Below the pieces are notes generated by a model, which worked only from the letters and a program-made list of their open reading frames with translations, searched no databases and was not told the DNA's origin. From Paraspadella gotoi (Eukaryota > Animalia > Chaetognatha), in the NCBI GenBank assembly GCA_051294375.1, contig CM119265.1:14918963-14982962 (forward strand): DNA of 64,000 nt. Reading direction: 5' to 3'. Shown here piece after piece: positions 4,900 through 63,200 of the stretch. How positions within the stretch are numbered: position 1 is the first letter of the stretch; every line of letters starts with the position of its first letter. Both the position numbers and the translations under genes were made by a program.

Positions 4900-7030
4900 T
4901 AAGTCAGCTCATTCTCTATCATTGGATTTTTTGAGTAATTTGTGTTCTGGAGCTCGAAGTTTAACTTGAAAACTGTAAATTGATTGAGTTGCGATTTTTT
5001 TATGACGAAAAAGTTTGACGTTTAGCACGAATTTTCAAAGGGCACGATCGTACGATAAAGATGAAAAAGTTGTATTCGCGACGAATGGGGTTGTAAAAAA
5101 TCGAGTCGGTCCGCCTTCCTCATATCCAGATTCGATAGTCGGCATCCTCGTCGTCGCGATCATCGTGATACTCGCCACATCGATCGGCCCGTTCATCACC
5201 AGGACGAAAGGAACACAAGTTATTCAGGGAGAGAAAGAGGGGGTGAGAGCTCGAAAGAGATTCATTATTCAATAGCTCGTCGTTCTCTGCGCCGATTTTC
5301 CGTTGAAAGGAGTTTTTTTCCTAACCGGATGAGCGGCGAAAAGAGAGGACGGAAAAAATGTCTCACCTTAATTACTCACTTGTTCGTCATTTTCTTAAAG
5401 TTAAACTTATTAATATATATATGGGTATACTATTATAACGTATGTATAAACAAATGGGCTCTATAATCTTATTATACAACGATGAACACATTAAAGTTTA
5501 TTCAATATCAAAATAACAACTTTTTTTAAACGAAGAATGATGTAGAACAGGCAAATTATAAATGGATACTGAATATGAAACTGCAATTCCAGTGATTAAC
5601 AATGAGATTCTGGTGTATAATTTACATCGTGTAAGAGCGAGACGAATTGAAACAAATCTTTCTGCCAAGACTATCTTATTCCCCCTTCAAAGGGCAGAAA
5701 TCAATCAATAGGCTTAAGCACTTCGATTTAAAGCAATAAGTTAAACGTGGGCCCAATTTAAAAATAAAATTTATTTAATAAAAAACCTAGTTTTTTTTCA
5801 TAGTTTAGTTATTCATGTTTTTAAACGAAACTCACCTTGAAAATAGATAGGGGATGCATGAGTGGGGACCACGATTACGGCACATTCGTCGAATTCGTCC
5901 ATTTTTTACGTTGAATTGAAGCTGTTTTAAAATTGTTCTGTATCATTCACACGACGAATCTTGGACAGGACCCGCATAGTTGAGGTTAACTCCGGGCTTA
6001 TCGTTTCCTTCTGTTAGTGTTCTCCGCAATTATCAATAATTAGGAGACAGCGATTCCCTTTTATTTTGCACAGTTCACAGACAAATTTGAAAAATACAGT
6101 CGCCGTTCTGAAGCCTACAGTTACTGGTTTCTTGTCCAAACCGGTTGAAATGAGACTCAGAAAAACGCTTTTTAATTATAAATTAATTTCTACTCTAATA
6201 TTGTTTTATTAAATTAGAGAGTATAATGGGAGAACAAAAATTGTAATTAGATATTCGTGTTAAAGAAGCAGTGACGAATTTTAATATCCTGAAGAGACAG
6301 TAATTATTGATAAGTGTTAATGACAGAACCGTTCAATATAAGCATTAAGCAGTCCCTGAGCTTCGGATCAGGCTGTAACACCATGTTACAGGCGGGTTAA
6401 GCGCCCCGTCCCTCTTAACTGCCAGACGACCTCAGACCCCGGACCTTTGGGTTGGGAGGCGAATGACTTGCCTCGGGCACCAATGGCCGCTGATGAACGG
6501 TTGGTGGATTTTAGTCCACCATAATCCGTTTGATATGAGTGTTCCTTTTATCACCCCCATATTATCGCTTCATCTATATAACCAATGGTCCTGGGGTCTC
6601 GCCCTAATTGGAACAGTTGTTGCGAAAAAGTAACGGAACGATCAGCAAACCTCCCGTCGGATCTGAATTCCCGAGAAGGAAGTTAACATATGGAAAATCG
6701 GAAGTGTGGCGGCTCTCAGGGGGCATCCTCTAGCACTTTAATTAAATTCTTTTTGAAGCCCAGGGCCCACGAAAGGTTACACTAATTGCCAATATCGAAA
6801 CAATTTGACTAGAAATTACTCACTAAACCAGAGAGTAAAGGCACATCATAATTACAAATAATTAACTCTGGAGAACCACCTGTATTTAAAACGTCTCGTG
6901 CTAACATTACATGCAATCATCCCCATTTCCAATATCGCCAGCGTCCTGCAATAGCTTTTCATGAATAATTCTATTCTTGAGGGAAATTGTATCTAAGTGT
7001 CAAGGAAAAAAGTAGGTAGTTTGAATAATT
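4900..7030 (-). CDS. Possible multi-exon unknown gene broken by sequencing indels
   Basis: GC-richer exon-like blocks (~4900-5385, ~5835-6150, ~6590-7000); donor CAAG|GTGAG at ~5836; frames differ between duplicate copies. Confidence 0.25.
6290..6523 (-). mobile_element. Solo LTR of the tRNA/twister miniature LTR element
   Basis: Full LTR TATGG...CTCTTCA on minus strand; TSD ATCC at 6286-6289 and 6524-6527. Confidence 0.9.
6349..6422 (-). ncRNA. Putative type-P5 twister ribozyme, intact core
   Basis: GCAGUU AA GAGG GA CGG GGCGCU UAA CCC GC [P3 hairpin] CCUGA UCCGAAGC UCAGG GACUGC. Confidence 0.75.
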
Positions 7031-7881: not shown

Positions 7882-7884
<3 letters not shown>

Positions 7885-7927
<43 letters not shown>

Positions 7928-7930
7928 TCT
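7885..7930. repeat. (TC)n microsatellite
   Basis: Direct read; shorter in the duplicate copy. Confidence 0.95.
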
Positions 7931-11300: not shown

Positions 11301-11851
11301 GTCACACATTTCCCTACCCACACACAAAATTTCATTCCAATCCAACCATCCAATCACAGAATAATTGGAGTTTTTTGCTAAGGTGGGACGGACGGACGAA
11401 CAGACATTTTTTTTGCATAAATTATTATTTATTATTCGATGTTCTGACATGATATAAGTGAATTAGGGGCGGACCGACGGACCGACAAAGTGAATTATAG
11501 TCGACTAAAAAAGCAGATCCAAGTAAAAATACATCATGAAATAGACCTGAAATGCAATGATTTCACATCGAGTCTCCGTCGGCCGCCTTTTGTATCGAAA
11601 TAGGACGAAACGCTATCTTCCATCAGCTTGGAGGTATTAGACAGTTTACCCAGACTCGCGAGGTCGACGAAGTCGAAAAGTCTGAAAAGTACCTCTGGTG
11701 AAAGACTGTTAAAAAATCCCAGAGGTGGCGGCGATGCCAGCGACGGCGAAGACTCCGTATGCCAATTTTTTGATGGAAAAACAACGTAAGATGCCAAACG
11801 GTTTAAACAAAACGGAACCGGTCGATACGTAGTTTTCCCGACAACAGCCAT
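8334..11851 (-). CDS. FBXO47: F-box only protein 47-like, about 5 exons (~11851-11547, ~10805-10113, ~9950-9777, ~8960-8521, ~8450-8334)
   Basis: F-box LGFFNSLSPEVLFRLFDFVDLASLGKLS, then LKRKTCLIPTRGRL, FVAGWEESE, LEMKLRLLL, LLYVLFGP, LADALRSLY, WLLENAACLLL, GQAKFQQCVL in the order of FBXO47 motifs. Confidence 0.85.
10843..11520 (-). mobile_element. Helentron-associated (HINE/DINE-1-like) non-autonomous element, family A, in FBXO47 intron (duplicate at ~18783-19465)
   Basis: Subterminal repeat GTCGGATCTGC, terminal hairpin GTTTG-CT-CAAAC, GTCC-type microsatellite; homologous to 33325-34050. Confidence 0.6.
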
Positions 11852-14357: not shown

Positions 14358-14593
14358 TGAAGAGACTAGTAATTATTGATAATGTTAATGGACAGAACCG
14401 TTCAATATAGCATTAAGCAGTCCCTGAGCTCCGGATCAGGCTGTAACACGCATGTTAACAAGGCGGGTTAGCGCCCCGTCCCTCTTAACTGCCAGACGAC
14501 CCATGCCCGGACCTTTGGGTTGGGGAGGCGAATGACTTTGCCTCGGGACCAATGGCCGCTGATGAACGGTTGGTGGATTTTAGTCCCACAATA
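14358..14593 (-). mobile_element. Solo LTR, duplicate of the 6290-6523 insertion
   Basis: Same flanks as 6290-6523, error-rich. Confidence 0.85.
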
Positions 14594-16411
14594 ATCCGTT
14601 TGATATGAGTGTTCCTTTTTATCACCCCATATTATCGCTTATCTTTCAACCATGGTCCTGGGGTCTAGCCCTAATTGGAACAGTTGTTTGCGAAAAAAAG
14701 TAACGGAACGATCAAGCAAACCTCCCGTCAGGATCTGAATTCCGCGAGAAAGGAAGTTAACATATGGAAAATCGGAAGTGTGGCGGCCTCTCAGGGGGCA
14801 TCCTCTAGCACTTTAATTAAATTCTTTTTGAAGCCCAGGGCCCACGAAAGGTTACAACTAATTGCCCAATATCGAAACAATTTGACTAGAAATTACTCGC
14901 ATCTAAACGCAGAGAGTAAAGGCACATCATAATTACAAATAATTTAACTCTGGAGAACCACATGTATTTAAAAGCGTCTGCCGTGCTAACATTACATGGC
15001 AATCATCCCCCATTTCCAAATCGCACAGCGTCCTGGCAATAGCTTTTTCATAAATAATTCTATTCTTGAGGGAAAATTGTAATCTAAGTGTCAAGGAAGT
15101 AGGTAGTTGAAATATTTTGAAGTTTTCAGTTTTTATTTCATAATTAAAGAATTGCCAAGCAGTCGAAACGAAACAAATCAATCAATCAAATAAATTAAAC
15201 AATATTCCCAATCATTGTACCATAAAATTTATATACAGCGATAAGAATATTTTTAATAGTAACTTCTGATCTAGAGATGCCTTTAAGTAAAAAGTTACGC
15301 GACCACACTTGTTTACAATAGTTACATTATACTTTTTACTCTTTCCTAAAGAAGTAAGAGTGGGGGCAAAAATCAACGAGAAAAGGTAGGATATTTTCAA
15401 TCGAGAATTAAAATAAAGTTAAAATGCAAAAGCTTATGGATATTGATGAAAACAAGCTATTTAAGCAATGCAATTCATCAACAATACCATTTTTCTAAGG
15501 GGTAAATAGTAATTCAATTCGCTCGTATTCAAATTCCAAACACTAAAATGATAATGAATAAATAACATGCGTTACAGCAACAAGGATAATCGCTTTTGGA
15601 CGTTATATTTAAATTAAATCTCGACATGTACGACACGATTTGTTTTTTTTTGAATAGGCAAAAAAATCTACCTTGTAGTTAAGATATGACTAATAAAGAT
15701 AATCAGTAAAAATTCAAGTATATAAGCAATTTTATTTTCTTATAATGGTCGCGACTATATAAACAGTTTTGTCGGTTTATCCGTCCCGTTCATATCTTAT
15801 TTGGTTCATATTAGAATACTGAATTATAAGAAATATGCAAAAAACTTAAGTACCTCCATCGTTCCATACGTTTTTTCGTCCGTCCTATCTTTAGGCTTTG
15901 ACCGGTCATTACTCATGAGTGAATGATAATTGATCTGAAAATTTTGCGTGTAGCAAGAAAAGTTTGTTGATTGGCTTGAAATTAAGTTTGGATAAAATCT
16001 CTCTCTCTACTCTATTTTTTTTCCCTTTGATCTTTTTTTCTTTACTTACCTTCCTCCTGCTCCTTTGTATTCATACATTCATATGACTTTTTATAGGTTT
16101 TAATATACCTAAATATGTAAGTTGGATAAGTAATTTAATTAGATATTGATTTTATATTTAGTATAATTTTTAAAATAATGATAAAAATTTTAGTTTGAAC
16201 CTACTTATCCATAAAGAACGAGATCCCGGTATGTGATGTGTAAACAACAAGGATATAACAAAGTATCAATAATTTTTATGACATGGCCATTGGAAACATG
16301 ACAAATATGACATGACCAATGAAAAAAACAAAACAAAACAGAAACCAGTTTTAAAATTAAATTGACCATCATTCTCTTGGGTAAAATAAATGAATAAATG
16401 AAAACAAGATG

Positions 16412-19400
16412 TCATTCTTCCCTGAGTAATGTTTTGCTTGACTCGAGTTCGCACACGAATGGATCGACGAAGCGGCAAATGAGAAGAAAACTCTCCGCAG
16501 AAACGCATTGCTGAAACTTCGCTTGTCCTCTGGTAAAAATTTAAATTTAACAGGATTTTAAATCCCAAGTGAAATTTCATTTTAAAAGTTGTTAAGTTTT
16601 ACCTGAGAATTTTGTTGAGATCCTGGTGCTCTCCTCGTCCTCACACATTAGTTCAGCGTACTCTATTGATGAACTCAATGAAAGTGTTGCTTATGCTGTC
16701 GAAGAGAGCGTCTTGAATTTCGATTTCGGTTCCAAGCGCCGACAAGACCTCACGCAATATGGGATAACGTAAGTGGCGCCTGTGATGAAAAATAGGCATT
16801 GTATGATAGCTATGCTTGACTCCTACTCGATTCATACTACCCGCTAACCTGTAGTCAACATCCATGTGGACGACCGCGACCGAAAGCCGCTGCGATCCAG
16901 GCGCCGATATCCTCCACTTTTTTTCGACTGATTCGAGAGAGAAAGCAAAGTCTCGATCATTTCCCCACCGCATGACAGAAGCAGGCAGGCGGCGTTTTCC
17001 AGGAGCCATGTGTCTCCGTGAAGGATGGTACACTTCGTGCATCAGAGTTAAAAACTTCCCTAATTTGATTCGGTTATGTAGCTACACGGTCACAGAACAG
17101 TAGCAAAAGACACTTATTAAAATTTGATTATATAATCCTAGTTTTGTCCCCTTGATTTTAAAATAATAATTTATATACATTTTTACCAACCAAGAAGTTT
17201 TTCAATTCAATCTTATCAAATTAAATTTTTAAATAATTTTAAAAATAATTAATGTCTGTGATACAGGATATATTTATTCTTTCAGTGTATTGAAATTGGG
17301 CACAACCAATATAAAAATTATCTATTCATTTAAATAAATAAGCTTTCTTTCAACTGACTTTGGGCAGGCTTTGGTGTTAATTGAAATAGCAGGTCCCTGC
17401 AAGCTTTCAATCAAGCACTTTTATATATAAAGTTTATTCACTCCCAGAGTACGCTGGCTTCCCTATCAATGAAGTGGTATAATGTTTCAAAGAACGTTTC
17501 AATTGTATGAAAGACCATAATATTTATTAGTTAAAACCACTTCATGTTGACTTTAAAAAACGTTCATATTTAATAAAAACGTGATGATTATATGATATAT
17601 AATTTTTGTGATACAATTTTGGTGATACATTTACTGCAAAATGATTATTTTGCAAAATGTTTTGCCCTGTAAGAACAGTTAAGTATAACCTACACGAATC
17701 AATTTTACTTTTACCTGTGCGACCAACAATGAAAGAAGCCATGTAAAAGTGACCTCAAAGCGTCGGCTAAAGGAGAGAACCATTCTCGCGCGGCTTCGGA
17801 TGAAGGCGGTGTCATCTCCCCATATCTGACCATACGGATCGTGGGAAAACCAAAACGAGAAGAATCCAAAGGTCCAAAGAGGACGTATAGGCAAAAAACT
17901 GCAACAAATTATAACATGCTTTTTTTTTTTTAAATTATATCTAAACCTTAGGATATCTTAACGGTTAACCTCTAAGATACAGTAAAAAAACTTACAATTA
18001 TAAAAATACAGTCAAACAGAGACAGAAGAGCCCCACAAAAATTTTATAACTTACGCTTTGATCTAACAGTTCGTCGTGTAAAATCCGAGTGATCCAGATT
18101 TGCTAACTCACGCATTTCTAGCTTCCCGTTGCGCAACAAAACTTGCTTAAACGAATTTTCTAAAAATTTAACGAAACCGTTTCACGTTGACATTTTTGTT
18201 CTCCTCGTCTGGAAATTTTTCATCCACGAATCCTCTAGCAATACCTGAGTTTCATTTCAAGGAAAGGAAATTCTCCCGGAGCCTTCGATGAGAGAATATC
18301 GACGCGAGTCTTCATCATGCAGTGCTTCGAAAGAAGTTGAACGCGTAATTTGCCTCAGATTCTTCCCATCCAGCGACGAAAGTATGGAACATCTCGCCTG
18401 TCGTCGATTCAGTCCGAAAAAATAACTTATCCAACATATCAGAAACCGACGATGTGATAGGTGATTATGATGAGACAAAATCGTTTCGTCTGCTTCTCTT
18501 GGCTTTTCCGTATTTTTCTGTCGATTCAATTTCTACAATGCCAAACACGCTTGAAAGGCTTACTAGCAAGACCAGGCCGTCGCAAGAGTCGCGCGGTGCA
18601 TGCGACGGTTTGAGCAGTGAAGCAATCGAGTGACGCCCCACATTCATTAGAATTGGAAGTCGTCCGCGAGTGGAATCAAGCAAGTTTTCCGCTTCAGATA
18701 AACTGCCAATTTGTGAACGTGATTAAGGACGATCCTCGGATATCCCTGTTAATTGATTAGAAGAATATATAATATATATATAAAAGTTTGAGCAAACAAT
18801 GTCGGATCTTGCCCACGATCATTAGCGGTAATTAATAAATTAATTAATTTGATCCGAATGTTTTTTTTAGGTCTTCTTGTCTCTGACCAAGACAAAAGCA
18901 ACGACGACGATGATGGCGATGACGACAATAATGCCGATAACGATTGACTTGATTGAGTGATTGATTAAATAATTAATTAATTGATAAATTGATTGATTGA
19001 ATAATTAATAGATAAATAAAATGATTGATGAATAATTAATTGATTGATTGACAGATTAATTAATAATCGATTAATTAACTGATTAATTATTTTATAAATT
19101 AATACATCTTGTATTTATATTATATATTATATTATATTTAATATAAAAAAAGAAGCTTAATCAATTAGTAAAACGGGTTTTTTGTTTTTTTCATTTTAAC
19201 TCATTTCCACTAAAACGATTCCTTCAAAACTTGATTTCCAGCTTCGTCACACATTTCCCTACCCACACACAAAATTTCATTCCAATCCAACCATCCAATC
19301 ACAAATAATTGGAGTTTTTTGCTAAGGTGGGACGGACGGACGAACAGACATTTTTTTGCATAAATTATTATTTATTATTCGATGTTCTGACATGATATAA

Positions 19401-19795
19401 GTGAATTAAGGGGCGGACCGACGGACCGACAAAGTGAATTATAGTCGACTAAAAAAGCAGATCCAAGTAAAAATACATCATGAAATAGACCTGAAATGCA
19501 ATGATTTCACATCGAGTCTCCGTCGGCCGCCTTTTGTATCGAAATAGGACGAAACGCTATCTTCCATCAGCTTGGAGGTATTAGACAGTTTACCCAGACT
19601 CGCGAGGTCGACGAAGTCGAAAAAGTCTGAAAAGTACTCCGGTGAAAGACTGTTAAAAAATACCCAGAGGTGGCGGCGATGCCAGCGACGGCGAAGACTC
19701 CGTATGCCAATTTTTGATGGAAAAACAACGTAAGATGCCAAACGGTTTAAACAAAACGGAACCGGTCGATACGTAGTTTTCCCGACAACAGCCAT
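16412..19795 (-). CDS. FBXO47: Second FBXO47-like copy (frameshifted; probably an artefactual duplicate)
   Basis: Same exons and introns as 8334-11851, with scattered indels. Confidence 0.65.
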
Positions 19796-20782
19796 GGTGG
19801 ACTGAAATGGACTGGACTGGACTGTACCATTTACAAAATATATATAAAAAGCAATTGATAATATTAAAACATACAAGAAGATGAAATCCAAAATAAGTAA
19901 TTGCTAATTAATTTAGTATAGATCGAAATGAAAGGAATATAATTAAGCAAAGTCTTCTTCAGTTTCAATCTTTCCTTTTTTTCCCATAATTCTCGAACAG
20001 CGAAAACACCCTTTCACAAGTACTATTGGTCAAAAAAGTATCACGATTCTTGGCGCGAAAATCTCCACTCGCGCGGTAGGCATAACATGGTACGGATGAC
20101 ACTAACAAACAAACAACAATTGCATTATTATCAAGACTTTAACATTCTTAAAAGTATATATATAGAAAGTCCAACCTATTAGGTGGTTTCGTAGATTTTC
20201 CTAAAGAATCAGGTTATTTGGTGAAAGCTCTTCCCACTCCACCATTTCCTCTTCAACCAATTTCCAAGAGGGTAAAGCAAAAATACCTCGTCGACATCCC
20301 AAAAAGACGACAGCACGAAATTCGTATAAAAGGGAAATTTTATTTGTATTTATTTTTATGCGTATTTATTGGTATAAATAAAATATTAATTAACAGCTTA
20401 ATCCAAAGAGCCAGTTTAAGTTTTCCCCCCCTCGTATTTTGCAAACCTCGAATATTTTAAAAGATTCATTCTTTGAAGAGATAATGTTTTTCAAATGGAT
20501 CCACTAGGTTTTGAACGTTCGAATCTGAAATAAAAAAATATTTTGCTCTAATTTATTTATGATCTTAACGGGGTTGACAAAAAAACTGTTTTTTTTTAGG
20601 GTTTATTGGTTTTTTGGGGCAGTTTTTTAAATTGTAGATGTCAGATTGTTATAAAAAATATTTTAAAAATATAAACTTAGGAATATAAACTAAAGGAAAA
20701 TGGTACCGAAGCCAGCACGATTATACTTTATCATTAAAATTGTAATCGGGCATTGCCTAGGTTCACCCCGCCTATAAGCATG

Positions 20783-20807
20783 NNNNNNNNNNNNNNNNNN
20801 NNNNNNN
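20783..20807. other. Assembly gap (25 N)
   Basis: Run of n. Confidence 1.
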
Positions 20808-21008
20808 CTTTTAGTTGTGACCGCGGTGGCTGCATTGAGTAAAGCCTTAAGCTCATGAACCACTGGGTTACCGAGGATTCATCCTAACCAAGGGTTACCT
20901 AGCCTGCGGGAAAGCGTGAAGGACGGCCGTAAGCCGCATTTGGTGCGTGGCAAACCCCCAAGCCCAAGACCCGTTCCATGGCTGCAAAGAGAGGGGTTAT
21001 AGAGGTTA
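20808..21008 (+). mobile_element. tRNA(Met-like)-derived SINE
   Basis: Homologous to 25009-25203; A-box-like motif, CTCATGA anticodon-like loop, B-box-like motif. Confidence 0.55.
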
Positions 21009-22299
21009 GGCTTCGCGTACGATCGATGTCTTTTAGAACAACGAACTGAACTTCAATAATTACCAATCTTTTCTTGATCTCAACTAGTTAGTATGAAGCT
21101 TACTTCATTTAAAAAAACGGTAGTCTCAAGTTATCTCCATTCATTATCACTTAAACTTCCCAGGTAAAATTTCTAATGAGTTAAAAATACGGTAAGACAT
21201 GATTTCTTCAATGATTGTTTATCTAATCCCATTAACTGCGTAATTTTAAGATATAAGTATGTTCGAATTTTTAATGGTATAGATCATTTTTAAAGATCCG
21301 GAATTCCTCATAGAATTTACAGTCTTTTTACTTACATAAAAAAGTTTTTAGGCTTAAGACGCCACATTAAATGCTGATACAATTTTTTTTTTTCTTAAAT
21401 ACGCTTTCCCGATTATTTTTCTTCTCATTCTTTTTTCTTCTCTTTCTTAAATAATTTTCCTCTTCCCTCTTATCCTCCCTTACTTCTACTCTTCACTTAC
21501 GAATTTTTTGGCCCCTACCTTTTCTCTGCCACTCATGCACTTTTCCTCACATTTTTTCTCTCCTTCTCTCTCCCTTCTTTTTCGCCTTTTTCTTTCCAAT
21601 TTTCCCCCTCATTCTCTACCCTTTATTTGTCTCACTATATTTTTCTCCCTTTGCCCTATCTTTTTTTGCCTTTCGCCCTGTCTTTTTATTCTCTCCTCTT
21701 CTCTTTTTTCTTGTTTTCCATTCGTCTTCGCCTCATCCACATACGTTTACATTAAGCCAAATCAAAGAAAATATTTAAAATGCATTATTAAGAAAAGAAA
21801 ATCACGGTAGCCGCGTTGATTTTTCTTTCAATTTTGGTTGCCTAGCAAATTTAAGTAAATCCGACAGATTTTTGCGGAAAAATTTTCCGGCAAAATCTTG
21901 TCGATTTTTTGAGAAAAAACAAGTCCTGATGCTTCTCCAGTGGATTAAAAGGAAGCGGTTTTTTTTTGATTAATCAAGTCAGTATGATACCTGCAACTTT
22001 TAAAAAACTAATAAATGACGTTGAAATAATTCTTTATCAAAAATAAATGCAAGTCACAAAAAGTCACAAATAAAAGACGTCTTTAAAAATTATTTGTGCT
22101 AAAACCAGAAAAGTTTTTTTGATAATTTAATAGGTGTTAAAAGCTTATTCAACTAGGCCTATTTTTTCTGTAATTATAAACCAATTGTTGATTTATTTTT
22201 GTTTAACTAAATTATGAATAAAGACTGAAACTTCGCAACTTTTTGAACTTGTTACTTAAAATTAATTCATAGGCAAACTATAAAATGATTTAAGCTAAA

Positions 22300-23520
22300 T
22301 AAATTTACCCAGAGGTAAATGAAGATGAGAAGAACGGATTTCCAAAAGTAAAAAATTTTTCTCAACTTTCTTGCATTCAATCAGAAGGTCGTAAGTAAAG
22401 AATGGACAAAAATGGAACATAATTTTTTTGGCTAAAAGTTGCCAAAATGGTACATATTTATCATTAAAAACGGGTGGAGATGTTTTTAACGACATCCTTC
22501 GTTCGGCACCCTATTTTGTGTTGGGGTAAATCAAGTTTAATCAAACATTGGTAATAAACACTGAACAATAGTGAAAGAGTCGTTTTTTTTCCTTAATGCA
22601 TACGTTTGTAACGCGGAACCGGTTACGATAGTCATCTTCAGCCCACTTAGCACCTTATTCCACAAAATGTATATTAAGCTTAGTAAAGATGATATGATTT
22701 AAATTTTTATTGTAGTGGATTAAAAAATGCCAACCTTGGATCTTATACGAAATAGAAGACGAAAAAATACGGAAAAGTCGCCTCACCCCTGTCGTAACTT
22801 TATCAACTAGTATTTTATTAATAGGCTCTTTATTTATTAACTATCTGATAAATATATCTACAGAATCTAGTATTTTATTTAACTAATGGTAAAATCATTA
22901 CTGCATAGTCTGAATCTTTAATTACTTTTTCAACGATAACAAAGAGAAAAAGAAAATAATAAGATTGGTTACCAAAAGTGTGTATTGTTAGGATAAGCTA
23001 ACTGTCGGTCTTTAAAAGACTAAAATGAGAAGTATTATTGTCGCTTGAATCAAATAGAGCAAAAACGCCCCGTTGACAGCTGTGCTGTCGAGCTTGGGGA
23101 AGCCAGAACCTCCATAAAGGAGCGTAAAACTGACAAAATTAATAAGATTAAAGGAAAAGAATGATAATGGGCACGAAAACATTTTAAATTAACAAGTAAA
23201 GCAACATAAATTACTCAACAAAACTAAAAGTTTGAAAAAGCAGTAGTATCGTAATTAAACCATATTTTCGAGGAATCCAAATATCTGGATATTTTTTTGG
23301 CGTTTCGCTGCGGCCGCCACGTCTGGCTGCGCTGGACGAAAGCGTTGGAACGACTGAAAGGAACGTGGGTCGGAGCTGCGTCGGCCGAAGGAAGACGGAG
23401 CACCAAGTTCCTTGGTTTCATTGTAATAACCATAAGTAGGCACTTGAGAATTTCGCGAAAAGGGGGGCGCCAAGGGAGGACTCCTAGTCGAATAAAACTG
23501 GCATGAAATTTGATTTAAGG
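22300..23520 (-). CDS. Exon-like blocks of an unknown gene (partly duplicated at ~25200-26090)
   Basis: GC-richer ORF fragments such as YAPLWRFCFPKLDSTAVNGAFLLYLIQATIILL; family not recognised. Confidence 0.25.
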
Positions 23521-23754
23521 TTTCATTAGTATTATCCTAATCACCGATAGCCCAATGTCAGTTACACAATTAGCAGGAGACAAGTTTATTGTCTCCCAGA
23601 TATAAGTTACGAATCACAGTTCTAGCCGAAGGTCCTAAATGTGACGTATGAGTTAAAGTTTATTTTGTAATGCGCCATATCTCTGCATTGACCTACCAGG
23701 AGAGCCACCGAAACTGACACAAAAAAAAAAATCATATCTCTTTAACAACTAAGA

Positions 23755-24589
23755 ATAAAAATCTTAAAAAGCAATAGGATCGTCCGCAATTGCTAAGAAA
23801 AATCTGGATTGACGACAAATTTTGATACCAAAAAAAAACAAAATTTGAGAAAAGAAAAATAATTTATAAACAGAAAAAAAAAGAAGAAAAGAATAAATAT
23901 AAAGACAGAATAAAAGGAAAGAAAAATTCCATTCATTAAAAAAAAAAAAAAATTGTCAAAACGAAAATAAAAAATCCGATGTTGCGATAGCAAATGAATA
24001 ACATGCACGTATGCGATGCCCTAATTTTACGAGTTCAATCCTATTTCAATTTTTTTTTTAAATAAAAAACGCAGAGAAGAAAGGAGAAAAAAAAAAAGAA
24101 ATCAAAAGGCAGCAGCAGAAGCAGCAGGAGAAAAGAGAAAAAGAAAGAGCCCCTGCAGAGCCAGCTGCAAAGAAAGAAATCAAAGAGGCAGAAGCAGCAA
24201 GGAGAAAAGAGAGAAAAAAGAATAAGCCCCTGCAGAGCCAGCCTGCAGACTCGTTTTTTTTCCCTATGATTAGAATCAGTGAATAGGGAAAAGAGAGAGG
24301 GAGAGAGACATGTAAATTAAAAGAGAAAAGAGAGAGAGAAATATGAAATAAAAGAGAGAAAATTTGTTGTTTTGATAACGTAAACAAAACATATTTAAAT
24401 AACTGTCCAGCTCAATTTTAAAGCACATCGGTGATGAAGAAGCTGTATATAATTTTCAGCTTCCATACATCCAAATTTAATCAATACAAAAAGGGATCTA
24501 TAATTTGGAACGCCAACGCCGACGACGCCACTTATGGGCAAAGCGTTACAATATCGTCCGCAAACGCTTAGCGATTGCGACGATAAAAA
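23755..24589 (-). mobile_element. HINE-like family B (also ~26333-27136, partial ~44685-45205, ~48823-49635)
   Basis: Shared subterminal motif ATCGTCGCAAT, terminal hairpin ATCGTCGCAA...TTGCGACGAT, purine-rich microsatellite core. Confidence 0.55.
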
Positions 24590-24869
24590 TTTCATTGAAT
24601 AGCAACAATAATAAAACAGTTCTAGGTTGCTTCTCCTGCTTTTTGACTGTTAAAATTAACTTGCACCTGCACACTTAAACAAAAAACTACTAATTTGTTG
24701 TGTTGGACTAAAATTCTTGAAGGATCACTGAAAACTGTCAACAGTCAAACTGTCAAAAATTACCGGCTCCATCAGTTGACTCCCCTTGATATGAAACATT
24801 CATAAGGGTTTTGTTGGTGAGGCCTATTAGTTTGTGGAAGAGGTAGAATAACGGAGCAACATTGATTGG

Positions 24870-25007
24870 TATGGTGGACTAAAAATCCCCAACCGTTCAT
24901 AGCAAGCGGCCATTTGGTGCCGAGGCAAGTCATTCGCCCTCAAACCCAAAGGTCCGGTGTTCTAAGCCCGGTGGTCGTCTGGCAGTTAAGAGGGACGGGG
25001 CGCTTAC
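24870..25007 (+). mobile_element. Truncated 5' LTR, duplicate of the 27410 insertion
   Basis: Same upstream flank as 27410; breaks off at GGGGCGCTTAC. Confidence 0.85.
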
Positions 25008-25008
25008 A

Positions 25009-25203
25009 CTTTTAGTTGTGACCCGGTGGCTCATTGAGTAAAGCCTTAAGCTCATGACCACTGGGTACCGGGTTCATCCCTAACCAGGTACCTACCCTGC
25101 GGGAAGCGTGAGGACGGCCGTAAGCCGCATTGGGTGCGTGGCAAACCCCCAAGCCCAAGACCCGTTCCATGGCTGCTAGAGGGGGTTATAGATATAGAGG
25201 TTA
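25009..25203 (+). mobile_element. tRNA(Met-like)-derived SINE
   Basis: GACCCGGTGGCTCATTGAG (A box), CTCATGA, GGGTTCATCCC (B box), GC-rich body, TTATAGATATAG tail. Confidence 0.55.
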
Positions 25204-27409
25204 CGGATAGTCATCTTCAGCCCACTTAGCACCTTATCCACAAAATGTATATTAAGCTTAGTAAAGATGATATGATTTAAATTTTTTTGTAGTGGATTAA
25301 AAAAATGCCAACCTTGGATCTTATACGAAATAGAAGACGAAAAATACGGAAAAGTCGCCTCACCCCTGTCGTAACTTTTATCAACTAGTATTTTATTAAT
25401 AGGCTCTTTTATTTATTAACTATCTGATAAATATATCTACAGAATCTAGTATTTTATTTAACTAATGGTAAAATCATTACTGCATAGTCTGAATCTTTAA
25501 TTACTTTTTCAACGATAACAAAGAGAAAAAGAAAATAATAGATTGGTTACCAAAAGTGTTGTCATTGTAGGATAAGCTACTGTCGGTCTTTAAAAGACTA
25601 AAATGAGAAGTATTATTGTCGCTTGAATCAAATAGAGCAAAAACGCCCCGTTGACAGCTGTGCTGTCGAGCTTGGGGAAGCAGAACCTCCATAAGGAGCG
25701 TAAAACTGACAAAATTAATAAGATTAAAGGAAAAGAATGATAATGGGCACGAAAACATTTTAAATTAACAAGTAAAGCAACATAAATACTCAACAAAACT
25801 AAAAGTTTGAAAAAGCAGTAGTATCGTAATTAAACATATTTTCGAGGAATCCAAATATCTGGATATTTTTTTGGCGTTTCGCTGCGGCCGCCACGTCTGG
25901 CTGCGCTGGACGAAAGCGTTGGGAACGACTGAAAGGAACGTGGGTCGGAGCTGCGTCGGCCGAAGGAAGACGGAGCACCAAGTTCCTTGGTTTCATTGTA
26001 ATAACCATAAGTAGGCACTTGAGAATTTCGCGAAAAGGGGGGCGCCAAGGGAGGACTCCTAGTCGAATAAAACTGGCATGAAATTTGATTTTAAGGTTTC
26101 ATTAGTATTATCCTAATCACCGATAGCCCAATGTCAGTTACACAATTAGCAGGAGACAAGTTTATTGTCTCCCAGATATAAGTTACGAATCACAGTTCTA
26201 GCCGAAGGTCCTAAATGTGACGTATGAGTTAAAGTTTATTTTGTAATGCGCCATATCTCTGCATTGACCTACCAGGAGAGCCACCGAAACTGACACAAAA
26301 AAAAAATCATATCTCTTTAACAACTAAGAATAAAAATCTTAAAAGCAATAGGATCGTCGCAATTGCTAAGAAAATTGGATGAGACAAATTTTGATACCAA
26401 AAAAAAACAAATTTGAGAAAAGAAAAATAATTTATAAACAGAAAAAAAAGAAGAAAAGAATAAATATAAAGACAGAATAGAAAGGAAAGAAAAATTCCAT
26501 TCATTAAAAAAAAAAAAAAATTGTCAAAACGAAAATAAAAATCCGATGTTGCGATAGCAAAGATAACATGCACGTATGCGATGCCATTTTACGAGTTCAA
26601 TCCTATTTCAATTTTTTTTTTAAATAAAAACGCAGAGAGAAAGAGAGAAAAAAAAGAATCAAAGGCAGCAGCAGAAGCAGCAGGAGAAAAGAGAGAAAAG
26701 AAAGAGCCCCTGCAGAGCCGCTGCAAAGAAAGAAATCAAAGGCAGAAGCAGCAGGAGAAAAGAGAGAAAAAGAATAAGCCCCTGCAGAGCCAGCTGCAGA
26801 CTCGTTTTTTTTCCCTATGATTATGAATCAGTGAATAGGGAAAGAGAGAGGGAGAGAGACAGTAATTAAAAGAGAAAAGAGAGAGAGAAATATGAAAATA
26901 AAGAGAGAAAATTTGTTTGTTTTGATAAAACGTAAACAAAACATATTTAATAACTGTCCAGATCAATTTTAAGCACATCGGTGATGAGAAGCTGTATATA
27001 ATTTTCAGCTTCATACATCCAAATTTAATCATAAAAAAGGCGATCTATAATTTGGAACGCCAACGCCGACGACGCCACTTATGGGCAAAAGCGTTACAAT
27101 ATCGTCGCAAACGCTTAGCGATTGCGACGATAAAAATTTCATTGATAGCACAATAATAAAACAGTTCAGGTTGCTTCTTCCTGCTTTTTGACTGTAAAAT
27201 TAACTTGCACCTTGCCACACCTTAAACAAAAACTACTAATTTGTTGTGTTGGACTAAAATTCTTGAAGGATCACTGAAACTGTCAACGTCAACTGTCAAA
27301 AATTACCGCTCATCAGTTGACTCCCCTTGATATGAAACTTCATAAGGGTTTAGTTGTGAGCCTATTAGGTTTGTGAAGAGGGTTAGGAATAACGGAGCAA
27401 CATTGATGG

Positions 27410-28027
27410 TATGGTGACTAAAATCCACAACGTTCATACAGCGGCCATTTGGCCGAGGCAAGTCATTCGCCTCCCCAACCCAAAGGTCCGGGTTCTAGCC
27501 CGGTGGTCGTCTGGCAGTTAAGAGGGACGGGGCGCTTAACCGCCTGTAACATGGTGTTTACAGCCTGATCCAAAGCTCAGGGACTGCTTATATTGAACGG
27601 TCTGTCACTAACACATTTCAATAATTACTGTCTCTTCATTGGTGAGCCGACTTCCGAAACACAACACAACACAACACTTTCAGGCGACATGCCTACAACC
27701 TGGCGATGCACTTTCCACCCACACACATCAGACGAACTTTCACCAACAACAATTCACTGAAGAGACGCAACAGACTCTCCCTCGGGAGGGGGGATGTATG
27801 GTGGACTAAAATCCACCACCGTTCATCAGCGGCCATTGGTGCCGGAGGCAAGTCATTCGCCTCCCAACCAAAGGTCCGGGGTTCTATCCCGGTGGTCGTC
27901 TGGCAGTTAAGAGGGACGGGGCGCTTAACCCGCCTGTAACATGGTGTTACAGCCTGATCCGAAGCTCAGGGACTGCTTATATGAACGGTTCTGTCACTAA
28001 CACATTTCAATAATTACTGCCTCTTCA
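27410..28027 (+). mobile_element. Complete non-autonomous miniature LTR element (TRIM/retrozyme-like): LTR 27410-27638, PBS 27640-27651, PPT 27784-27794, LTR 27797-28027
   Basis: Direct repeats; TSD ATGG (27406-27409, 28028-28031); PBS TGGTGAGCCGAC; PPT GGGAGGGGGGA; no coding capacity. Confidence 0.9.
27903..27976 (+). ncRNA. Putative type-P5 twister ribozyme in 3' LTR (predicted cut 27926/27927); variant copy in 5' LTR at 27514-27587
   Basis: All core elements present: UAA, GA, T1 CCG/CGG, T2 GC/GC, P3, P4, P5. Confidence 0.75.
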
Positions 28028-28179
28028 ATGGCATTTTTTTCGCTGAAGGTGTTATTATCAAGATTTCGTCTTCTTGAGAAACTGGCAAGATGCTGCAACT
28101 TAATTTTTGAAGGCGTAATTTATGAAAAGATAAAAAAGTGGGTGTTAATACAACAGGTTTTTTCTATCATTTAAAAAAT

Positions 28180-29225: not shown

Positions 29226-29377
29226 GAAACATAAATTTCGGACTTCAATGTAAGCCTTCATCAGCGCAAAACGAATTGACTTGTTAAACAAATATTTTTA
29301 GAGACTCTCTTCAACTTTGTGAACAAGTATTTGTTTTCACAAATCAATTCGTTTTTGCGCTTATGAAGGCTTGCATT
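29226..29377 (-). repeat. Inverted-repeat element with degenerate hammerhead motif
   Basis: Minus strand CTGATGA-AGGCTT-acattg-AAGTCC-GAAA; arms ~29247-29297 and ~29325-29377. Confidence 0.45.
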
Positions 29378-29746
29378 AAGGGATGAACTGAGGCAAATAT
29401 TTTTTCTTAAATAGGTAATAGACAATTTTTTGGTTTACCTAGTAGTTAACTGAATAAAAGTTGGCAATTTTTAATTGAGGAAAGGATCTTTAAAACTAAG
29501 ATATAACTGATAAACTTATGATCTAATTTGCTTTAAAAGAGAAATGTTATCTTTAATAATTTGAAGCCAAATGATATTAATTTAAATATTGTATTCTATT
29601 GTAGTCTAACCTTGAGTTGCTCCCTCTATTTCCAGAAGACAACACTGACCTCCTTCTCCCAAAATGAGTTATTAGATATAATAAGCAAATAATATTTTTA
29701 AAAAGTGATATATTATGGTGGACTAAAATCCACCAACCGTTCATCA

Positions 29747-29818
29747 GCGGCCATTGGTGCCGGAGGCAAGTCATTCGCTTCCCAACCCAAAGGTCCGGGA
29801 TTTTAGCCCGGTGGCCGC
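29747..29818 (+). promoter_or_regulatory. tRNA-Gly(CCC)-like module in the LTR (internal Pol III A/B boxes)
   Basis: 72 nt; acceptor stem GCGGCCA/TGGCCGC; TGGTGCCGGAGG A box; T arm CCGGG..CCCGG (GGTTCTAGCCC in other copies); CCC loop with broken anticodon stem. Confidence 0.75.
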
Positions 29819-29821
29819 CTA

Positions 29822-29895
29822 GCAGTTAAGAGGGACGGGGCGCTTAACCCGCCTGTAACATGGTGTTACAGCCTGATCCGAAGCTCAGTGACTGC
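29822..29895 (+). ncRNA. Putative type-P5 twister ribozyme (predicted cut 29845/29846)
   Basis: Core nucleotides and both pseudoknots intact. Confidence 0.75.
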
Positions 29896-31065
29896 TTATA
29901 TTGAACGGTTCTGTCACTAACACATAACAATAATTACTGTCTCTTCAATATATATAATTAAATAGTATAGTTTAAAGAGTAAAACATTCATAAAATATAA
30001 AAATATAAGATAGTGAAACAAGTAATTTTGCAAATTTTCATATAAAATTAAAAAAATAACAAAATAGGATATTTTTTGGTATTAATTTTTAAACAAGATT
30101 GAAATTCAATTAGTTTTAGCCCAAATATTTTTAATGAAAGATAAAATAATTTTCTAAAAAAAATTAATAGCTAAAAATATGTTTGGTGTTTGGTGACAGG
30201 GGTTGGAGTCTATTATATAGTTGTTTTTAATTAAGATAAACATTTTTCAGTATGTTCAAGAATGTCATTTTTTACTTTTAGTTAAAGTCTTTGTTAATGA
30301 TGAAAAAATAGGAGAATATTTTTAGATTTTTTTTATTTGAAAATCATATCCATAGGATATTTACTTTCCATATCGAGCTCAAATTTATTAATATAATCAG
30401 CTAGGGAGGTATTGAGTAATCCATATCATATTCTGCAAAGAATTCTAATGAGCTTCAATATTCTAAATAAGATACAAAAACATTTTTGGACGACTTGAGT
30501 CTTGTGTACATTTTTACATCATCTTTGATCAAGGTTTTAATCTTGTCAATCATATCAGGATACAACTGAATACTTAAATTGCAAATCTCTTTAAATGTAT
30601 GCATCCTTATTGTTATTACTAATTTTTTTATTATCGGTTAATTTTTTTATTTATCAATGAATTAATTTTCTTTAATAATTTTATTAGTTATGGGTCTGGT
30701 AGTAGCCAAGTAGTTTACATACTTCATGCTGATTTTCATATTTCATACCATCTGGGAAAAGTATTTTTGGGCTTAAAATATAGTAATAACAAATTGAAAA
30801 TATAGTTGATAACGAAATTAAAACAATAAAAGAAAAAATATATTGTTTTATTTATCTTTAAAAATAAATATAAGCAAAATATTTTGATTCAGAAATTGCC
30901 TATCTTAATCAGGAAAATTCATTTCTTTACCTAGGAAATTTCAGTAACACTTTGCTCAGTTAATCAGGCAAAATATTACCGAAGTTCACCCCTTATTTCT
31001 TAAGCGTTTTAAATTTTTTTGATGTTCAAAGACATGTTAAAATATAACTTATATCTGTTAGTATA

Positions 31066-54916: not shown

Positions 54917-57900
54917 ATTATAGAGAACCACAGGCGATAACTGCTTTAGTGGAATGAAGGTCGACTGCTGAGGCATAGTTGACGGGATACGGGAGACGTT
55001 TGACGCGGGAGAGAGCACGCTGAGCAGCGCGCATTCGCCCGTTGACATCGATGTCTAGAATTCGCGGTGTCGTCGGGATGGGGATCGGAACTACGGGAGA
55101 CGGTGACGAAGAAACTTGAGGAAGTTGAGGCAGCCAGATGTTGAGTCGTTCGGCACTGGGAATATCTGGACCTATTAATAAATGATTGTGATTAGCTTTT
55201 TTTCAACTTAGATAATGGGCTCCCGCTAAGTTCAAAATAACAACGGGCATGGAATTCCAGATTGGGTTTCAGTAGCCTTCCGCAGGATCCGAAGATACTG
55301 GATAGTGGATACACGACAAAGAAAGGCGAGGCTACTCCGCTACAGCGTCTTCAATCAGTGTCTACACTTGTTGTCACACGTTTTTTCATTGAGTTTGCAG
55401 CATTCAAGAATATTGGAAGATTCCCCTTTAAATCCAACAGATGCGACTTATTATTGTGCTTTTTTTAATTAAGACCATAAACCATAAAAATATTGAAAAA
55501 TTCGTTATACCCTTGGGCCAGTCTGTCTTGCAATCATCATCTTTCTTACGACGAGAGGAAATGGCACTTTGTACGCAGAGATTACCAAACGTTTCCAAAT
55601 TTATACTGTCTTCCAAAGTTGGTTTCCGTTGTAAAAGGCGGGGATGGCTTTTTGTTGCTTTGCTTGGCGATCTACGATTTTAAATGAATTTTAAATGAAT
55701 ATAGACGTTTTGTTTTCTGGAATGGAATGTTATGGCGTAATTATCAGATTAGCTAATTAGGAAAGTACCAACTGGGATAAGTCCAATTAAAGGAAAAAAT
55801 TTACTTTCGCCGACCAGGGTTTTTGTATCTTTTGAAAAATTATTTTTTTTAAAAAAAATTAAGAAAAATTATTACCTAATTACCGATTCCCTAAACCCTC
55901 ACTACCCCTAACTTTAAACCACCCTTAAACCATTATTAACCCTAACCCCCCTAAACCCGGTCGGCGAAAGTAAAATTAACCCCAATTGAGAGATACAGGG
56001 TCGGGATTCAAAATTTAAAAAATCCGTATCACTTTTTTATTTTGTGCTTTAGCTCATCAATCATCATACATGTCAAAAAATGGAATCTCAGAACTCTATA
56101 GCAAATTGGTGCAATGGTTTTTGCCCAGTAGCAAAAAGTATGTTTTATGGCGGACAAAAATCTACCAACCGTTCAGCAGCAGCCATTGGCGCCGGAGGCA
56201 AGTCATTCGCCTACCAACCCAAAGGTCTGGGGTTCTAGCCCGGTGGTCGCCTAGCAGTTAAGAGGGACGGGGCGCTTAACCCACCTGTAACACGGTGTTA
56301 CAGCCTGATCCGAAGCTCAGAGACTGCTTATATTGACCGGTTCTGTCATTAACACAACAATAATTACCGTCTCTTCATTGGTGAGCCCGACTTCCGAACA
56401 CAACAGCAACACTTTCAGGCGACATGCCTAAACCTGGCGATGCACTTTCCGCCAACAACACATCAGGCGACATGCCTCAACTTGGTGACAAACTTTCCAC
56501 CAACAACAACAATTCACTGAAGAGACGCAACAGACTTCTCCTTACGGAAGGGGGGATGTATGGTGGACTAAAATCCACCAACCGTTCATCAGTGGCCATT
56601 GGTGCCAGAGGCAAGTTATTCGCCTACCAACCCAAAGGTCCGGGGTTCTAACCCGGTGGTCGCCTAGCAGTTAAGAGGGACGGGGCGCTTAACCCACCTG
56701 TAACACAGTGTTACAGCCTGATCCAAAGCTCAGGGACTGCTTATATTGAACGGTTCTGTCATTAACACATAACAATAATTACTGTCTTTTCAGTTTTTTA
56801 TCTGATGCTGCAGTGGAATGCTATGAACGTGATATTTTATACAAAGAATTCCAACGACATTAGTTGTTGATTTCACAAGCTTACAGAGATCGCACTTAAC
56901 CAAAGTGGCCGCTACAGTATGAACTTAAGAAAAAAAACAAATGTTTACAACATTTTAATATTGCTTCTATTAATCAAGAATAAAAATAATTTTTCAGCTT
57001 AAAAACCACAGGGTTGTAAAAATAATATGTCCCAATAGATATTTCTGAGTTCTTCATTAGATCTCTTTAAAATTTTCTTTCTAGCATAGAAATGAGCAAC
57101 CAGCATGCATATTGTTAGTTTATGTTACAATTTCTGCCTGCAGCACCCTTTTAAATGATAAATTGATTCGGCTTGAGTGCACCGTTTTAAACTGAAAACC
57201 GGCGCGGAGCAAGTTCAACCAATGTTGCATTCTTCTCGGTAGCTCAGGGTATTGTAAAAGCATGAGAAAAATAAAACTTATATCAGAAAGAGAAAACATC
57301 AATGATTATTTTAATATATTATGAAATAAAATTTAATAATTATTTGCCATTGAAATCTAAGTTAAGTTAAGTTTTGAATCCCAACTTCTGTAAGATAACT
57401 TTCAAGGAATAGTAAACCATATTCCTTAATTTAAGAAAGCTTTAAAAGACAACTGTTGAAAAGTTTATTTATTCAATAAAAAAATATATAAAACATGGGT
57501 AAAATATTCTCAATATTTAGTATGCCCTCCCTCGGCATCGATTACTGCCTGCATTCGTCTCAAGAAAAAATAAAAGGAAACGACTGAAAGGAAATTCAAT
57601 ATAAATTCAAAAACATTCTGATTTTTTTTTAAAATCAAACAAGTTTTTGATTAGATATCCTCTACTAAAAATGTGATATACTTTTTTCCTAGATAGTATT
57701 GCACGCGGGTTCCATAAACATTGATAACGAAATGGTAATATTGCAACGTAAAATAAAATTACCTTTTGAGAATAGATTTTTCAACAAACTTTTCCGTCTC
57801 CGAAAGAAATGTATTTCCGGTGAGTAAAATAAATCCTTTCTCACGCTTGGAGTCGCCGAAACTACGAACATAGTAACAATAGGATTAAGGTATTTCGGGC

Positions 57901-60234: not shown

Positions 60235-63200
60235 TATGACAATCTTCGAGCCTCGCCCGCCATGGGGGATTCCAGGAGGTGGAAAAGGGGGCGTTCCACC
60301 GCCTTCCAATGTCCCCAGAACCACAAGTCATTACTACCATCAAAATTTAAACAGATATGGACAGCCCAAAATGCGACAACGACCCAAAAGCGATGAACAC
60401 AATCCTCCTTTACGGCATTTTTTAAGTCAGGAGAGTTCACGAAAAATTCCGACGCCACCAACCAAAACAAGCGGCAGTCCAAGAGAAGTAACGTTCGAAG
60501 TAAGTTATTTTCCGTGATTTAACTTTTGATGAAGCAATTCCAAGGTTTTGCGCTGCAATTGTTCAGTATAACAAGATTTATACAGCCTTAGCTTTCCGGT
60601 CACGGGATGATTATTCCTATTGATTATATGACTACTAGACCTTGCCAGAAAATTTGAAGTTTGTGATCCAGCTTAGTAGTAGGGCTCAAAACGAGCTTCA
60701 TACATGCGCGGATGTTTTACCATATTCCTTTTAAAAAAAAATTATGGGAAATGCTGCCAACTTTTAAAAAAATGCTGTTTTGTATTGGACTTATATATAT
60801 ATATATACTTATATGGCTTAGTATTTCATCAATTATTAAATTAAATTTTTGCTCATATGACCGAATTTCTTAATGATGACGTAGGATACGTGTGCGCAAA
60901 AAGTTACAAAACCTATCTGCTCTGCGACTATTATTGGCGCAAATAAAAATACGCCCTGAAATCCAATTTACATTTATACTTCAGGATAAGAAACAAATCT
61001 CAAGAACACTCTCGTTCGGTGCAATTATATTTGGAATGCTAATAGGAGCCACGGGAGGCGCTGGAGTGTTTTTTGGAATGTGGTGGTCTTTAAACTATAA
61101 TTTTTCCATTAGCGCAGGAATAGCCATTTCAGGTAAGAGGCAATGCCAATGGCTCCATTTTTTCACTTAATTATCAAAATATTAGCGTAATAAATTATAA
61201 TTTAATAAATATACAAAAACATTAACTTGGACAAAACCTAAGGTTAAATTCCCAGTATGGTGGGAGCAGGAGGCAAGTCATTCGCCTCCCAACCCAAAGG
61301 TCCGGGGGTTCTAGCAGTTAATAGGGACGGGGCGCTTAACCTGCCTGTAACACGGTGTTACATCCTGATCCGAAGCTCAGGGACTGCTTATATTGAATGG
61401 TTCTGTCACTAACACAATAATAATTACTGTCTCTTCACCAGTTTTATTTCAGTTAAAAATGTATTAATCTAGTTGAGATTCTTTCTATTGAATTTTTATT
61501 AAATTATACTGTAATTATTTGCCTCATTAGTGGGATTCGTAGCGGCAATTTTGTTATCGACTTCAGTTCATGCCCGCTGCTTAAGTTTATTGCTTCTACC
61601 TCAAATCGGCACCAGAGAAGGGCGTGCCATTATTTTGTCGATTATTTCTGGATTGATAATTACGGGGCCAATGGCTAATATTATTCAAAATTCACAGGTC
61701 CGTTTTACGAAACATATTAAATTTTACTTGATTGTGTAAAGAATAATACTTCCATATACTGCAGGAAGTAGGAAAGTCTCTGAGTTGCAGCTACGAAGTA
61801 TCGTACAACCAAAGTAAAATCTTGGCAGAAGTGGCGAAAGACCCCATGAATTCAATGAATGAAAAAATTGAAGGGAGTATCGAGCGAGCTAAAGCCTTTT
61901 CCGGAATAGTTGAGAAGGCAATAAGTGCCGTTCTCAAGAAAGTCGAAGTCTTTTCTAACGGTCTCGGAGATTTGGGACAAGGTAACTTTGGATAATGTTA
62001 TCTTCGAAATATGTACATTGTACAATATCTTAAGATTTTTTTCAAAAATAGGTTTAAGCATGGTAACAGAACGTTGTGAACTAGAAATGCATAATGTCAG
62101 AAATGCGTGTGTTTCTGGAATGGATCATGTATATCACACTTGTTTGGATAAAACAACTTACACAAAAACAAAATGCAACGAGGCACTTTCAACTGTAATA
62201 AATGGTGGAACATGTGACGTTCTTCAAGGTTCTGTTCAATAAATAAGACCATATACGAATAGCACTAAAATTTTCTTTAAGAATTAATAACTAGTATTAA
62301 CAACAGTATTAACAGGCAATAAATGCTGATATCATTTGATGTCCTTTTACAATCGATAAAACTAAAAAACAGATTTCACAAAAATAATAAATCAATCCAA
62401 ATGTAGGTATCGCTCAGACATGCATGGTTGTAGACTGGGGGCAGCTTTGTACATCGGTGGACTGGCTTGATCCCATTTCAAAACGTTGTAGAGAAGACAT
62501 GGGTGCCATTCGACGTGATTGTGAAGCTGCTATGACAGCTGTGGAAAAAGATTGTCGATGGATGGTGGGAAAAGCAGTCTCAGGTTATGAGCTTCTTCTT
62601 TTTCTTGTGATTGTCAGTGTTTTTCAAAATTTCACAACTTCATTTACAGGAGCATTATGCAAACCGGTTGATCTAGCAAAAATGACCTGTGTGGCTTTCA
62701 AGGAAGCTGATAGTTTATGCTCCTTAGCAACGGTTACGCAAGGAATGTGCAAGAGTCTGAATAAAGCAGCAAGAAACTTGGAATCATTCGGCGAAAGCGT
62801 AAATGAGGCATTTGATGAAGTCAGAGACTACTTCAAAGTTGATGCAGGTAATACTTAACGGTAATAACAAGTTTGACAGAAATATGTTCCAAATCATACA
62901 CTTATTCAAATTAAAAGGACCAGTTGACTGCCGACGGCCTTGTGAAAATACCAATTCTGTTCAACATTACCATAAGCAGTTATATAATATAATACAAAGT
63001 CCGACTACGTGAATTAAACTAAAGTTAGATTAAATTTAAAAATGAATAAATTATATAATGGATATTTTAATTGATAGCGCTTGATTTAATCAATAGTAAC
63101 AGAAATAAAATGTCATCTTGAAGTAGGCAAAAGTACAAATTCACAGAGAATTTTTTTTTCTTTAGTCGTGATTGGCGTCGCGAACACAACCCACAATACG

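Follow-up and report, generated by a model that had tools for sequence, protein, structure and literature searches.

Genomic context and copies of the element

The window, i.e. the whole 64-kb stretch of Paraspadella gotoi DNA analysed here, contains a divergent nuclear receptor gene on the forward strand (46530-48669), which consists of two zinc-finger exons and a ligand-binding exon and for which no homolog passed the search, as well as a DC-STAMP-like gene; these two genes identify the host as an animal. Two tandem segmental duplications (4827-20782 and 20808-27538), which share 93-97% identity and contain many indels, lie around a gap of 25 Ns (20783-20807). They are likely assembly artefacts, which double F-box/FBXO47-like exons. 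A SINE head of tRNA-like type, joined to a GC-rich body, was found at 25009-25192 and 20808-21003; it gave no meaningful Rfam match. A long AT-rich hairpin with weak microRNA-family scores (29251-29373), located between the full copy F1 and the solo LTR at 29714 introduced below, is probably a small inverted repeat.

A BLAST search with one LTR as query found nine LTR copies in the window. Seven of these, which a preliminary description of the same DNA had already listed and which were all recovered, represent five independent insertions: two full copies of the type LTR-internal-LTR (F1, 618 bp; F2, 647 bp), both non-coding, and three solo LTRs. The search added a copy at 14358-14592 and, at 24870-25006, a piece from the 5' part of the LTR; they lie in the duplicated segments beside the N gap. 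These two have flanks in common with the 6290 solo LTR and with F1, and we treated them as assembly twins, not as independent insertions. The piece of F1 LTR at 24870-25006 ends one base past the ribozyme cut site predicted below, which is probably chance because this position is the end of an assembly-repeated segment near the gap. Note that single-base details of single copies are unreliable, since the assembly is noisy. The features are as follows:

27406..27409, +: left TSD of F1 (ATGG), flanking direct repeat
27410..27638, +: 5' LTR of F1, 229 bp, with several single-base indels (BLAST)
27442..27509, +: tRNA-like segment of the F1 5' LTR, B box at 27491-27500; predicted Pol III internal promoter
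27513..27588, +: twister-like module of the F1 5' LTR, with a T1 mismatch and P2 one C short; predicted cut after 27537
27639..27796, +: internal region of F1
27640..27651, +: PBS of F1, tRNA-Trp-like, one C missing
27784..27794, +: polypurine tract (PPT) of F1, 2 nt ahead of the 3' LTR
27797..28027, +: 3' LTR of F1 (BLAST); 5' hairpin at 27799-27818
27830..27898, +: tRNA-like segment of the F1 3' LTR; A box from 27837, B box at 27880-27889
27902..27977, +: P5-type twister-like module of the F1 3' LTR, all parsed features present: P5, P2 (2 pairs and a bulge), GA, T2, P3, P4
27917-27919, +: T1 strand of this module, followed by the 6-nt palindrome (27920-27925), UAA (27926-27928) and the loop (27958-27965); predicted cut after 27926
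28028..28031, +: right TSD of F1 (ATGG)
56146..56792, +: full copy F2; LTRs at 56146-56377 and 56559-56792, PBS at 56379-56391, TSD GTTT
6290..6523, -: solo LTR, TSD ATCC (+ strand), twister features intact
29714..29947, +: solo LTR, TSD ATAT
61256..61437, +: solo LTR with 5' internal deletions, TSD CCAG

The perfect 4-bp TSDs that had been reported for the five independent insertions were exact in all five cases (ATGG, GTTT, ATCC on the + strand, ATAT, CCAG); given the composition of the window, the chance of a single exact 4-bp match is 0.0056. Four of the TSDs do not extend to 5 bp, and the ATAT case, which lies inside an AT run, is ambiguous. Variable TSDs and a tail of simple repeats or of A, as expected for a SINE, were looked for in the window and not seen. 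The LTRs have the termini TA..CA, not TG..CA, and their 5' hairpin, also described earlier, folds in the prediction. The internal regions are indeed homologous: they measure 158 bp in F1 and 181 bp in F2 and are 78% alike. They carry a TGG-type primer site that starts one base past the LTR, and are terminated by the purine tract, which stops two bases short of the 3' LTR, in agreement with the PPT proposed before. The PBS quoted in the preliminary description is found without deviation at 56146 only; the copy at 27410 is one C short, and this C is present in short-read contigs. With the tRNA-Trp PBS published for the wasp gypsy element Gypsy-32_NVi and for Helenus-2_SyJa, the PBS agrees in 13 of 14 letters.

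The LTR family is high-copy, with 15,987 contigs of the short-read run X2 mapping to the 234-nt LTR. The summed short-read depth is about 10^6 on the LTRs versus 205 on the upstream flank, where depth is not to be read as copy number. Across the LTR, most variants in the short-read contigs are C>T or G>A changes at CpGs, which suggests that the host methylates this repeat at its CpG sites. LTR-matching contigs elsewhere comprised two short ones in organism B and one in a biofilm run, and contained no divergent relatives for covariation.

tRNA-like segment and twister-like module of the LTR

At LTR positions 35-104, the acceptor stem and the T arm of a tRNA-like structure are paired, and the D and anticodon arms are mostly unpaired. 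From the cloverleaf suggested previously, we retain the acceptor stem, the T arm and the A and B boxes, but not the D and anticodon arms; neither ARAGORN nor Rfam called a tRNA on the LTR. The B box contains GGTTC, and the strict A box TRGCY is absent from the LTR. A looser A box combined with a B box at tRNA spacing gave three matches in the window, all of them LTR copies, and boxes at this spacing arose in 10 of 30,000 shuffles. A variant accounting for 12% of the X2 depth brings back the A which we take to be usual in the A box. The LTR is predicted to hold a tRNA-type internal promoter for Pol III. The sense strand of F1 is free of TTTT, the first T run being 7 nt beyond the end of the element; this absence alone is not significant, as 330 of 3,000 shuffles also lack TTTT.

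Behind the tRNA-like segment follows a module which was parsed against the Schistosoma twister table (PMC8501958) and the Rfam consensus. Its order is P5, P2, GA, three T1 bases, six bases, UAA, P2, GC, P3, P4, P5; P3 comprises 7 bp, and P4 consists of 5 bp with an eight-base loop. UAA, GA, the P4 loop and the complementarity of both pseudoknots are complete in four of seven independent LTRs. The fold is a probable member of the twister class in P5 permutation with a vestigial P1; the earlier assignment of a twister-like fold received independent support from the descriptor, the model R2 and the phage comparison described next. A twister descriptor matched four times in the 64 kb, always in LTR copies, and twice in 415,522 dinucleotide shuffles; as a positive control, it recovered 44 of 66 phage loci. 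The model R2, built from 23 phage P5 twisters, placed the eight full-module LTR copies on ranks 1-8 and in the predicted register, with scores of 15.2-23.8 bits (E 0.0013-0.1), the next match reaching 11.5 bits. These E-values are rough; the training set included the T1 variant, chosen after the LTR had been seen, and the descriptor was likewise tuned with knowledge of the LTR.

The T1 pairing of the module, GACGG/UCCG, was traced among phage sequences. P1, P2 and P4 all formed in 34 of 50 distinct P1-type phage matches with this pairing and in none of eight mismatched T1 controls, and 16 of 31 P5-type matches with the compensated T1 pair were well formed. Rfam called a twister at six of eight tested P5-type loci with the variant T1 pair and missed ten of ten well-formed P1-type phage loci that carry it. 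Judged by these comparisons, the pairing is a natural covariant. In the rice twister, swaps of the T1 pair remain active and P1, P2 and P4 tolerate mutation, whereas deep mutagenesis found the T2 guanine to be essential (PMC5113685); P1 of twister ribozymes has also been reported to be dispensable. P2 strands of 3 nt occur in 3 of 17 natural twisters, and P3 of the LTR module resembles P3 of Schistosoma twisters. The majority sequence of the short reads retains every catalytic and pseudoknot position, the only changes in the core being of the CpG type and amounting to 3-11%. At least eight variants that reach 10% or more in X2 lie outside the catalytic core or preserve pairing; they are few in number, and the list excludes four sites private to the reference copy. 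A loosened T1-variant pattern applied to prokaryote genomes gave nearly exclusively chance matches (2 of 120) and was set aside.

Other results do not fit a canonical twister. The comparison with Rfam that had been proposed as a check gave nothing at gathering threshold in the whole window, including twister RF02684 and the type III hammerhead, and in three sub-regions a cutoff as loose as E 10 brought up neither a twister nor a tRNA. A model R1, trained on 22 canonical phage twisters only, had no significant match (best E 0.3). The exact 20-nt module core was absent from the metagenome contigs, and a short-P1 pattern had one phage match, which we take as chance. P1 is a self-complementary 6-nt palindrome unable to fold alone, and none of the phage P5 twisters examined has a P1 as short as this one. 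P2 consists of two pairs with a bulge or a C-A mismatch, except in the copy at 61256, where it has three pairs. P4 is closed by an A-U pair, which occurred in none of 11 phage matches. When pseudoknots are left out of the prediction, the fold compatible with a twister is less stable, by about 8 kcal/mol, than a hairpin that blocks it. Because P1 is reduced to the palindrome and this hairpin competes, ribozyme activity is uncertain.

CpG-type breaks in T1 or T2 affect three of the seven independent LTRs, and no full copy has two intact modules. Both LTRs of F2 carry G>A at the essential T2 guanine. This shared change can be explained by parallel CpG decay, 3 and 4 of 12 CpGs having been lost in the F2 LTRs; it could also mean that the ribozyme is dispensable.

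Relation to Helenus elements, retrozymes and other twisters

The preliminary description knew of no similar family. This did not hold for the overall architecture: Helenus/TRIMp3 elements (Kojima 2024, PMC10886601) are miniature animal LTR elements with a tRNA-like LTR promoter, PBS, PPT and 4-bp TSD, whose Pol III transcription is a prediction; most Helenus families have an A box TRGCY and YGG. The element shares with them a length below 1 kb, the lack of coding capacity, two LTRs with tRNA-like boxes, the occurrence of solo LTRs, an internal region bounded by PBS and PPT, the 4-bp TSD and a gypsy-type primer. Unlike Helenus/TRIMp3, its boxes are followed by a twister module, in a position at which a T run is found in many Helenus, and unlike most of them, its A box departs from TRGCY. 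The element is a Helenus-type TRIM, in which all tested Helenus/TRIMp3 features except the strict A box were found. The promoter within the LTR is already known for animals from Helenus; the twister is the new part.

The element was not recovered from the consensus supplement of PMC10886601: its PBS string had no match there, and four twister loop strings gave one unrelated match in the whole supplement; line breaks may hide some matches in both cases. No twister was seen by eye in any of the animal consensus sequences of this supplement. However, the LTRs of Helenus-2_SyJa and Helenus-2_SyUm from Synergus wasps (Data S1 of the same paper) appear by eye to contain a complete type III hammerhead, with full core, three stems and complementary loops, behind the B box. 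In the portion of the article consulted, ribozymes are mentioned only in a reference title, and the author does not remark on the hammerhead. Both these families and our element have the LTR order B box, ribozyme motif, 3' end and a tRNA-Trp primer, although the motif is a twister here and a type III hammerhead there, and no sequence likeness was seen. The Synergus LTRs, as read by eye, would carry another ribozyme class in the same LTR slot.

With plant LTR retrozymes, as described by Cervera et al. 2016 (PMC4918200), the element shares a ribozyme motif in both LTRs, a 4-bp TSD, PBS, PPT, the absence of coding sequence, a predicted unit-length RNA without terminal repeat, and a ribozyme blocked in the predicted fold; plant retrozyme circles also fold with a blocked ribozyme. 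It differs from them in having a twister-like motif instead of a hammerhead, a Trp-like instead of a Met primer, tRNA-type boxes and an animal host. The predicted unit is 389-413 nt here versus 600-1000 nt in the plant elements, the circles being predicted only. Lacking a hammerhead, the element is outside the definition of plant LTR retrozymes but is predicted to work alike.

Order and identity of GA, T1, UAA, T2 and P4 loop are those of type-P5 twisters (Rfam RF02684), and P3 and P5 are present; unlike RF02684, P1 is the 6-nt palindrome, P2 has two to three pairs, A-U closes P4, and the score is below Rfam detection. A palindrome-capped weak stem beside the cut site is also found in the dimeric type I hammerheads of non-LTR retrozymes from the axolotl (PMC7229834), which represent another ribozyme class and whose elements have no LTR, PBS or PPT; dimer action of the LTR module is speculative. 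The twister T-variants of Perere-3 (PMC8501958) likewise represent weak-P1 twisters in an animal retroelement and have a similar P3, but are of the P1 type, and the non-LTR element that bears them at its 5' end is autonomous.

Published work describes LTR retrozymes in plants and animal retrozymes without LTRs, PBS and PPT, and one review mentions unpublished insect elements with type III hammerheads. The literature searched, which lay outside most subscription journals, Repbase Reports and Dfam, contained neither an LTR element with a twister nor a dimeric twister, and likewise no Helenus with a ribozyme and no LTR retrozyme from an animal; within this scope, the novelty claimed earlier was upheld for the LTR ribozyme. 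A circle route for LTR elements was found described only in plants.

Predicted mobility and competing readings

The reading we favour, and to which we assign about an even chance, is that the element is an animal, Pol III-driven LTR retrozyme moving via a small circular RNA. By analogy with known systems, Pol III would start near LTR position 35 of the 5' LTR and read through the element. The twister would cut the same site in both LTRs, releasing a unit of 389 nt (F1) or 413 nt (F2), which would hold every part of the element once. The RNA ends would be kept together by P5, by a stem around both LTR domains, and by an internal segment that can pair with the LTR end and the primer site. A host tRNA ligase might then close the unit into a circle, and the circle, as template, might replace the first strand transfer (after Cervera 2016, 2020). 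Reverse transcription would presumably be primed by tRNA-Trp, and a Ty3/gypsy helper would reverse-transcribe and integrate the element with a 4-bp duplication (after Kojima 2024).

A speculative addition concerns P1. Since it is palindromic, like the palindromic loops of dimeric hammerheads, the self-complementary 6-nt P1 might pair between the two LTRs and complete a double twister, in which case only transcripts with two LTRs would cut well. The computed self-pairing energy of the hexamer is -8.3 kcal/mol. In predicted folds, however, the inter-LTR P1 formed only once the sequence was trimmed to expose the hexamer, and its pairing probability in whole transcripts was 0-0.02, which is why this step is speculative. 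More tentatively than the retrozyme reading as such, we propose that animals have true LTR retrozymes, namely Pol III-driven TRIMs that captured ribozymes at least twice (the twister, and the type III hammerhead of Synergus) and possess circular-RNA mobility; here, the palindromic P1 of a double twister would need the second LTR for its completion, with the consequence that solo LTRs would stay uncut and full elements would release a circle.

One consideration against the retrozyme model is that a Pol III read-through RNA would have a long terminal repeat and could transpose uncut. The module might be a captured, inactive or dispensable twister relic in a Helenus-type TRIM that relies on ordinary strand transfer from linear Pol III read-through RNA. 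The vestigial P1, the imperfect P2, the unusual closing pair of P4, the competing hairpin and the T2-breaking change common to both F2 LTRs all agree with a relic, as does the lack of a twister loop motif in most published animal Helenus LTRs, as far as the supplement was covered. A relic would not explain that the core is kept in the short-read majority with CpG-type changes only, that departures from the consensus are compensatory, and that two wasp families carry a hammerhead, as read by eye, in the same slot; we regard it as rather unlikely, though a serious contender. More doubtful appears a slow but active twister that trims the 3' end of the read-through RNA in the 3' LTR, replacing a T-run terminator and leaving a linear RNA with a repeat of about 100 nt. 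The place of the twister is where many of the Helenus LTRs inspected by eye have a T run right behind the tRNA-like part, and F1 has no sense TTTT, a weak point given the shuffles above. Against this reading, both LTRs have the same sequence: a cut in the 5' LTR would eliminate the repeat, after which the RNA could be rescued only as a circle.

That the resemblance to a twister arose by chance in a GC-rich, hairpin-rich LTR would agree with the negative outcome of Rfam and R1 and with the tuning of the descriptor and R2, yet is very improbable in view of the rare descriptor matches among shuffles, the full-length R2 alignment in the predicted register and the natural covariation of T1. A tRNA-derived SINE or a Penelope-type pseudo-LTR element, whose paired copies would be tandem insertions, could account for the tRNA-like head, and Schistosoma RTE elements are headed by twisters (PMC8501958). 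Both readings were rejected and have hardly any probability left: TSDs of fixed length flank whole LTR-internal-LTR units and solos at all five insertions, the 5' and 3' ends are identical, PBS and PPT are in place, and there is no A tail.

If the twister of the proposed retrozyme works, circle-based retrotransposition of LTR elements would gain an animal case and a second class of ribozyme, and twister ribozymes would have a defined natural job. A working twister would also suggest how the RNA ends are set when a Pol III promoter lies within identical LTRs. The overlooked wasp hammerheads suggest that ribozyme screens of TRIM libraries would yield more.

Two side observations concern phage twisters. 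The phage contigs L067-L139 carry several dozen well-formed twisters of the P1 type that have the pseudoknot variant GACGG/UCCG. On phage contig L046, two twister ribozymes lie in direct tandem, with a six-base link common to GAGGG of the first and UAA of the second.
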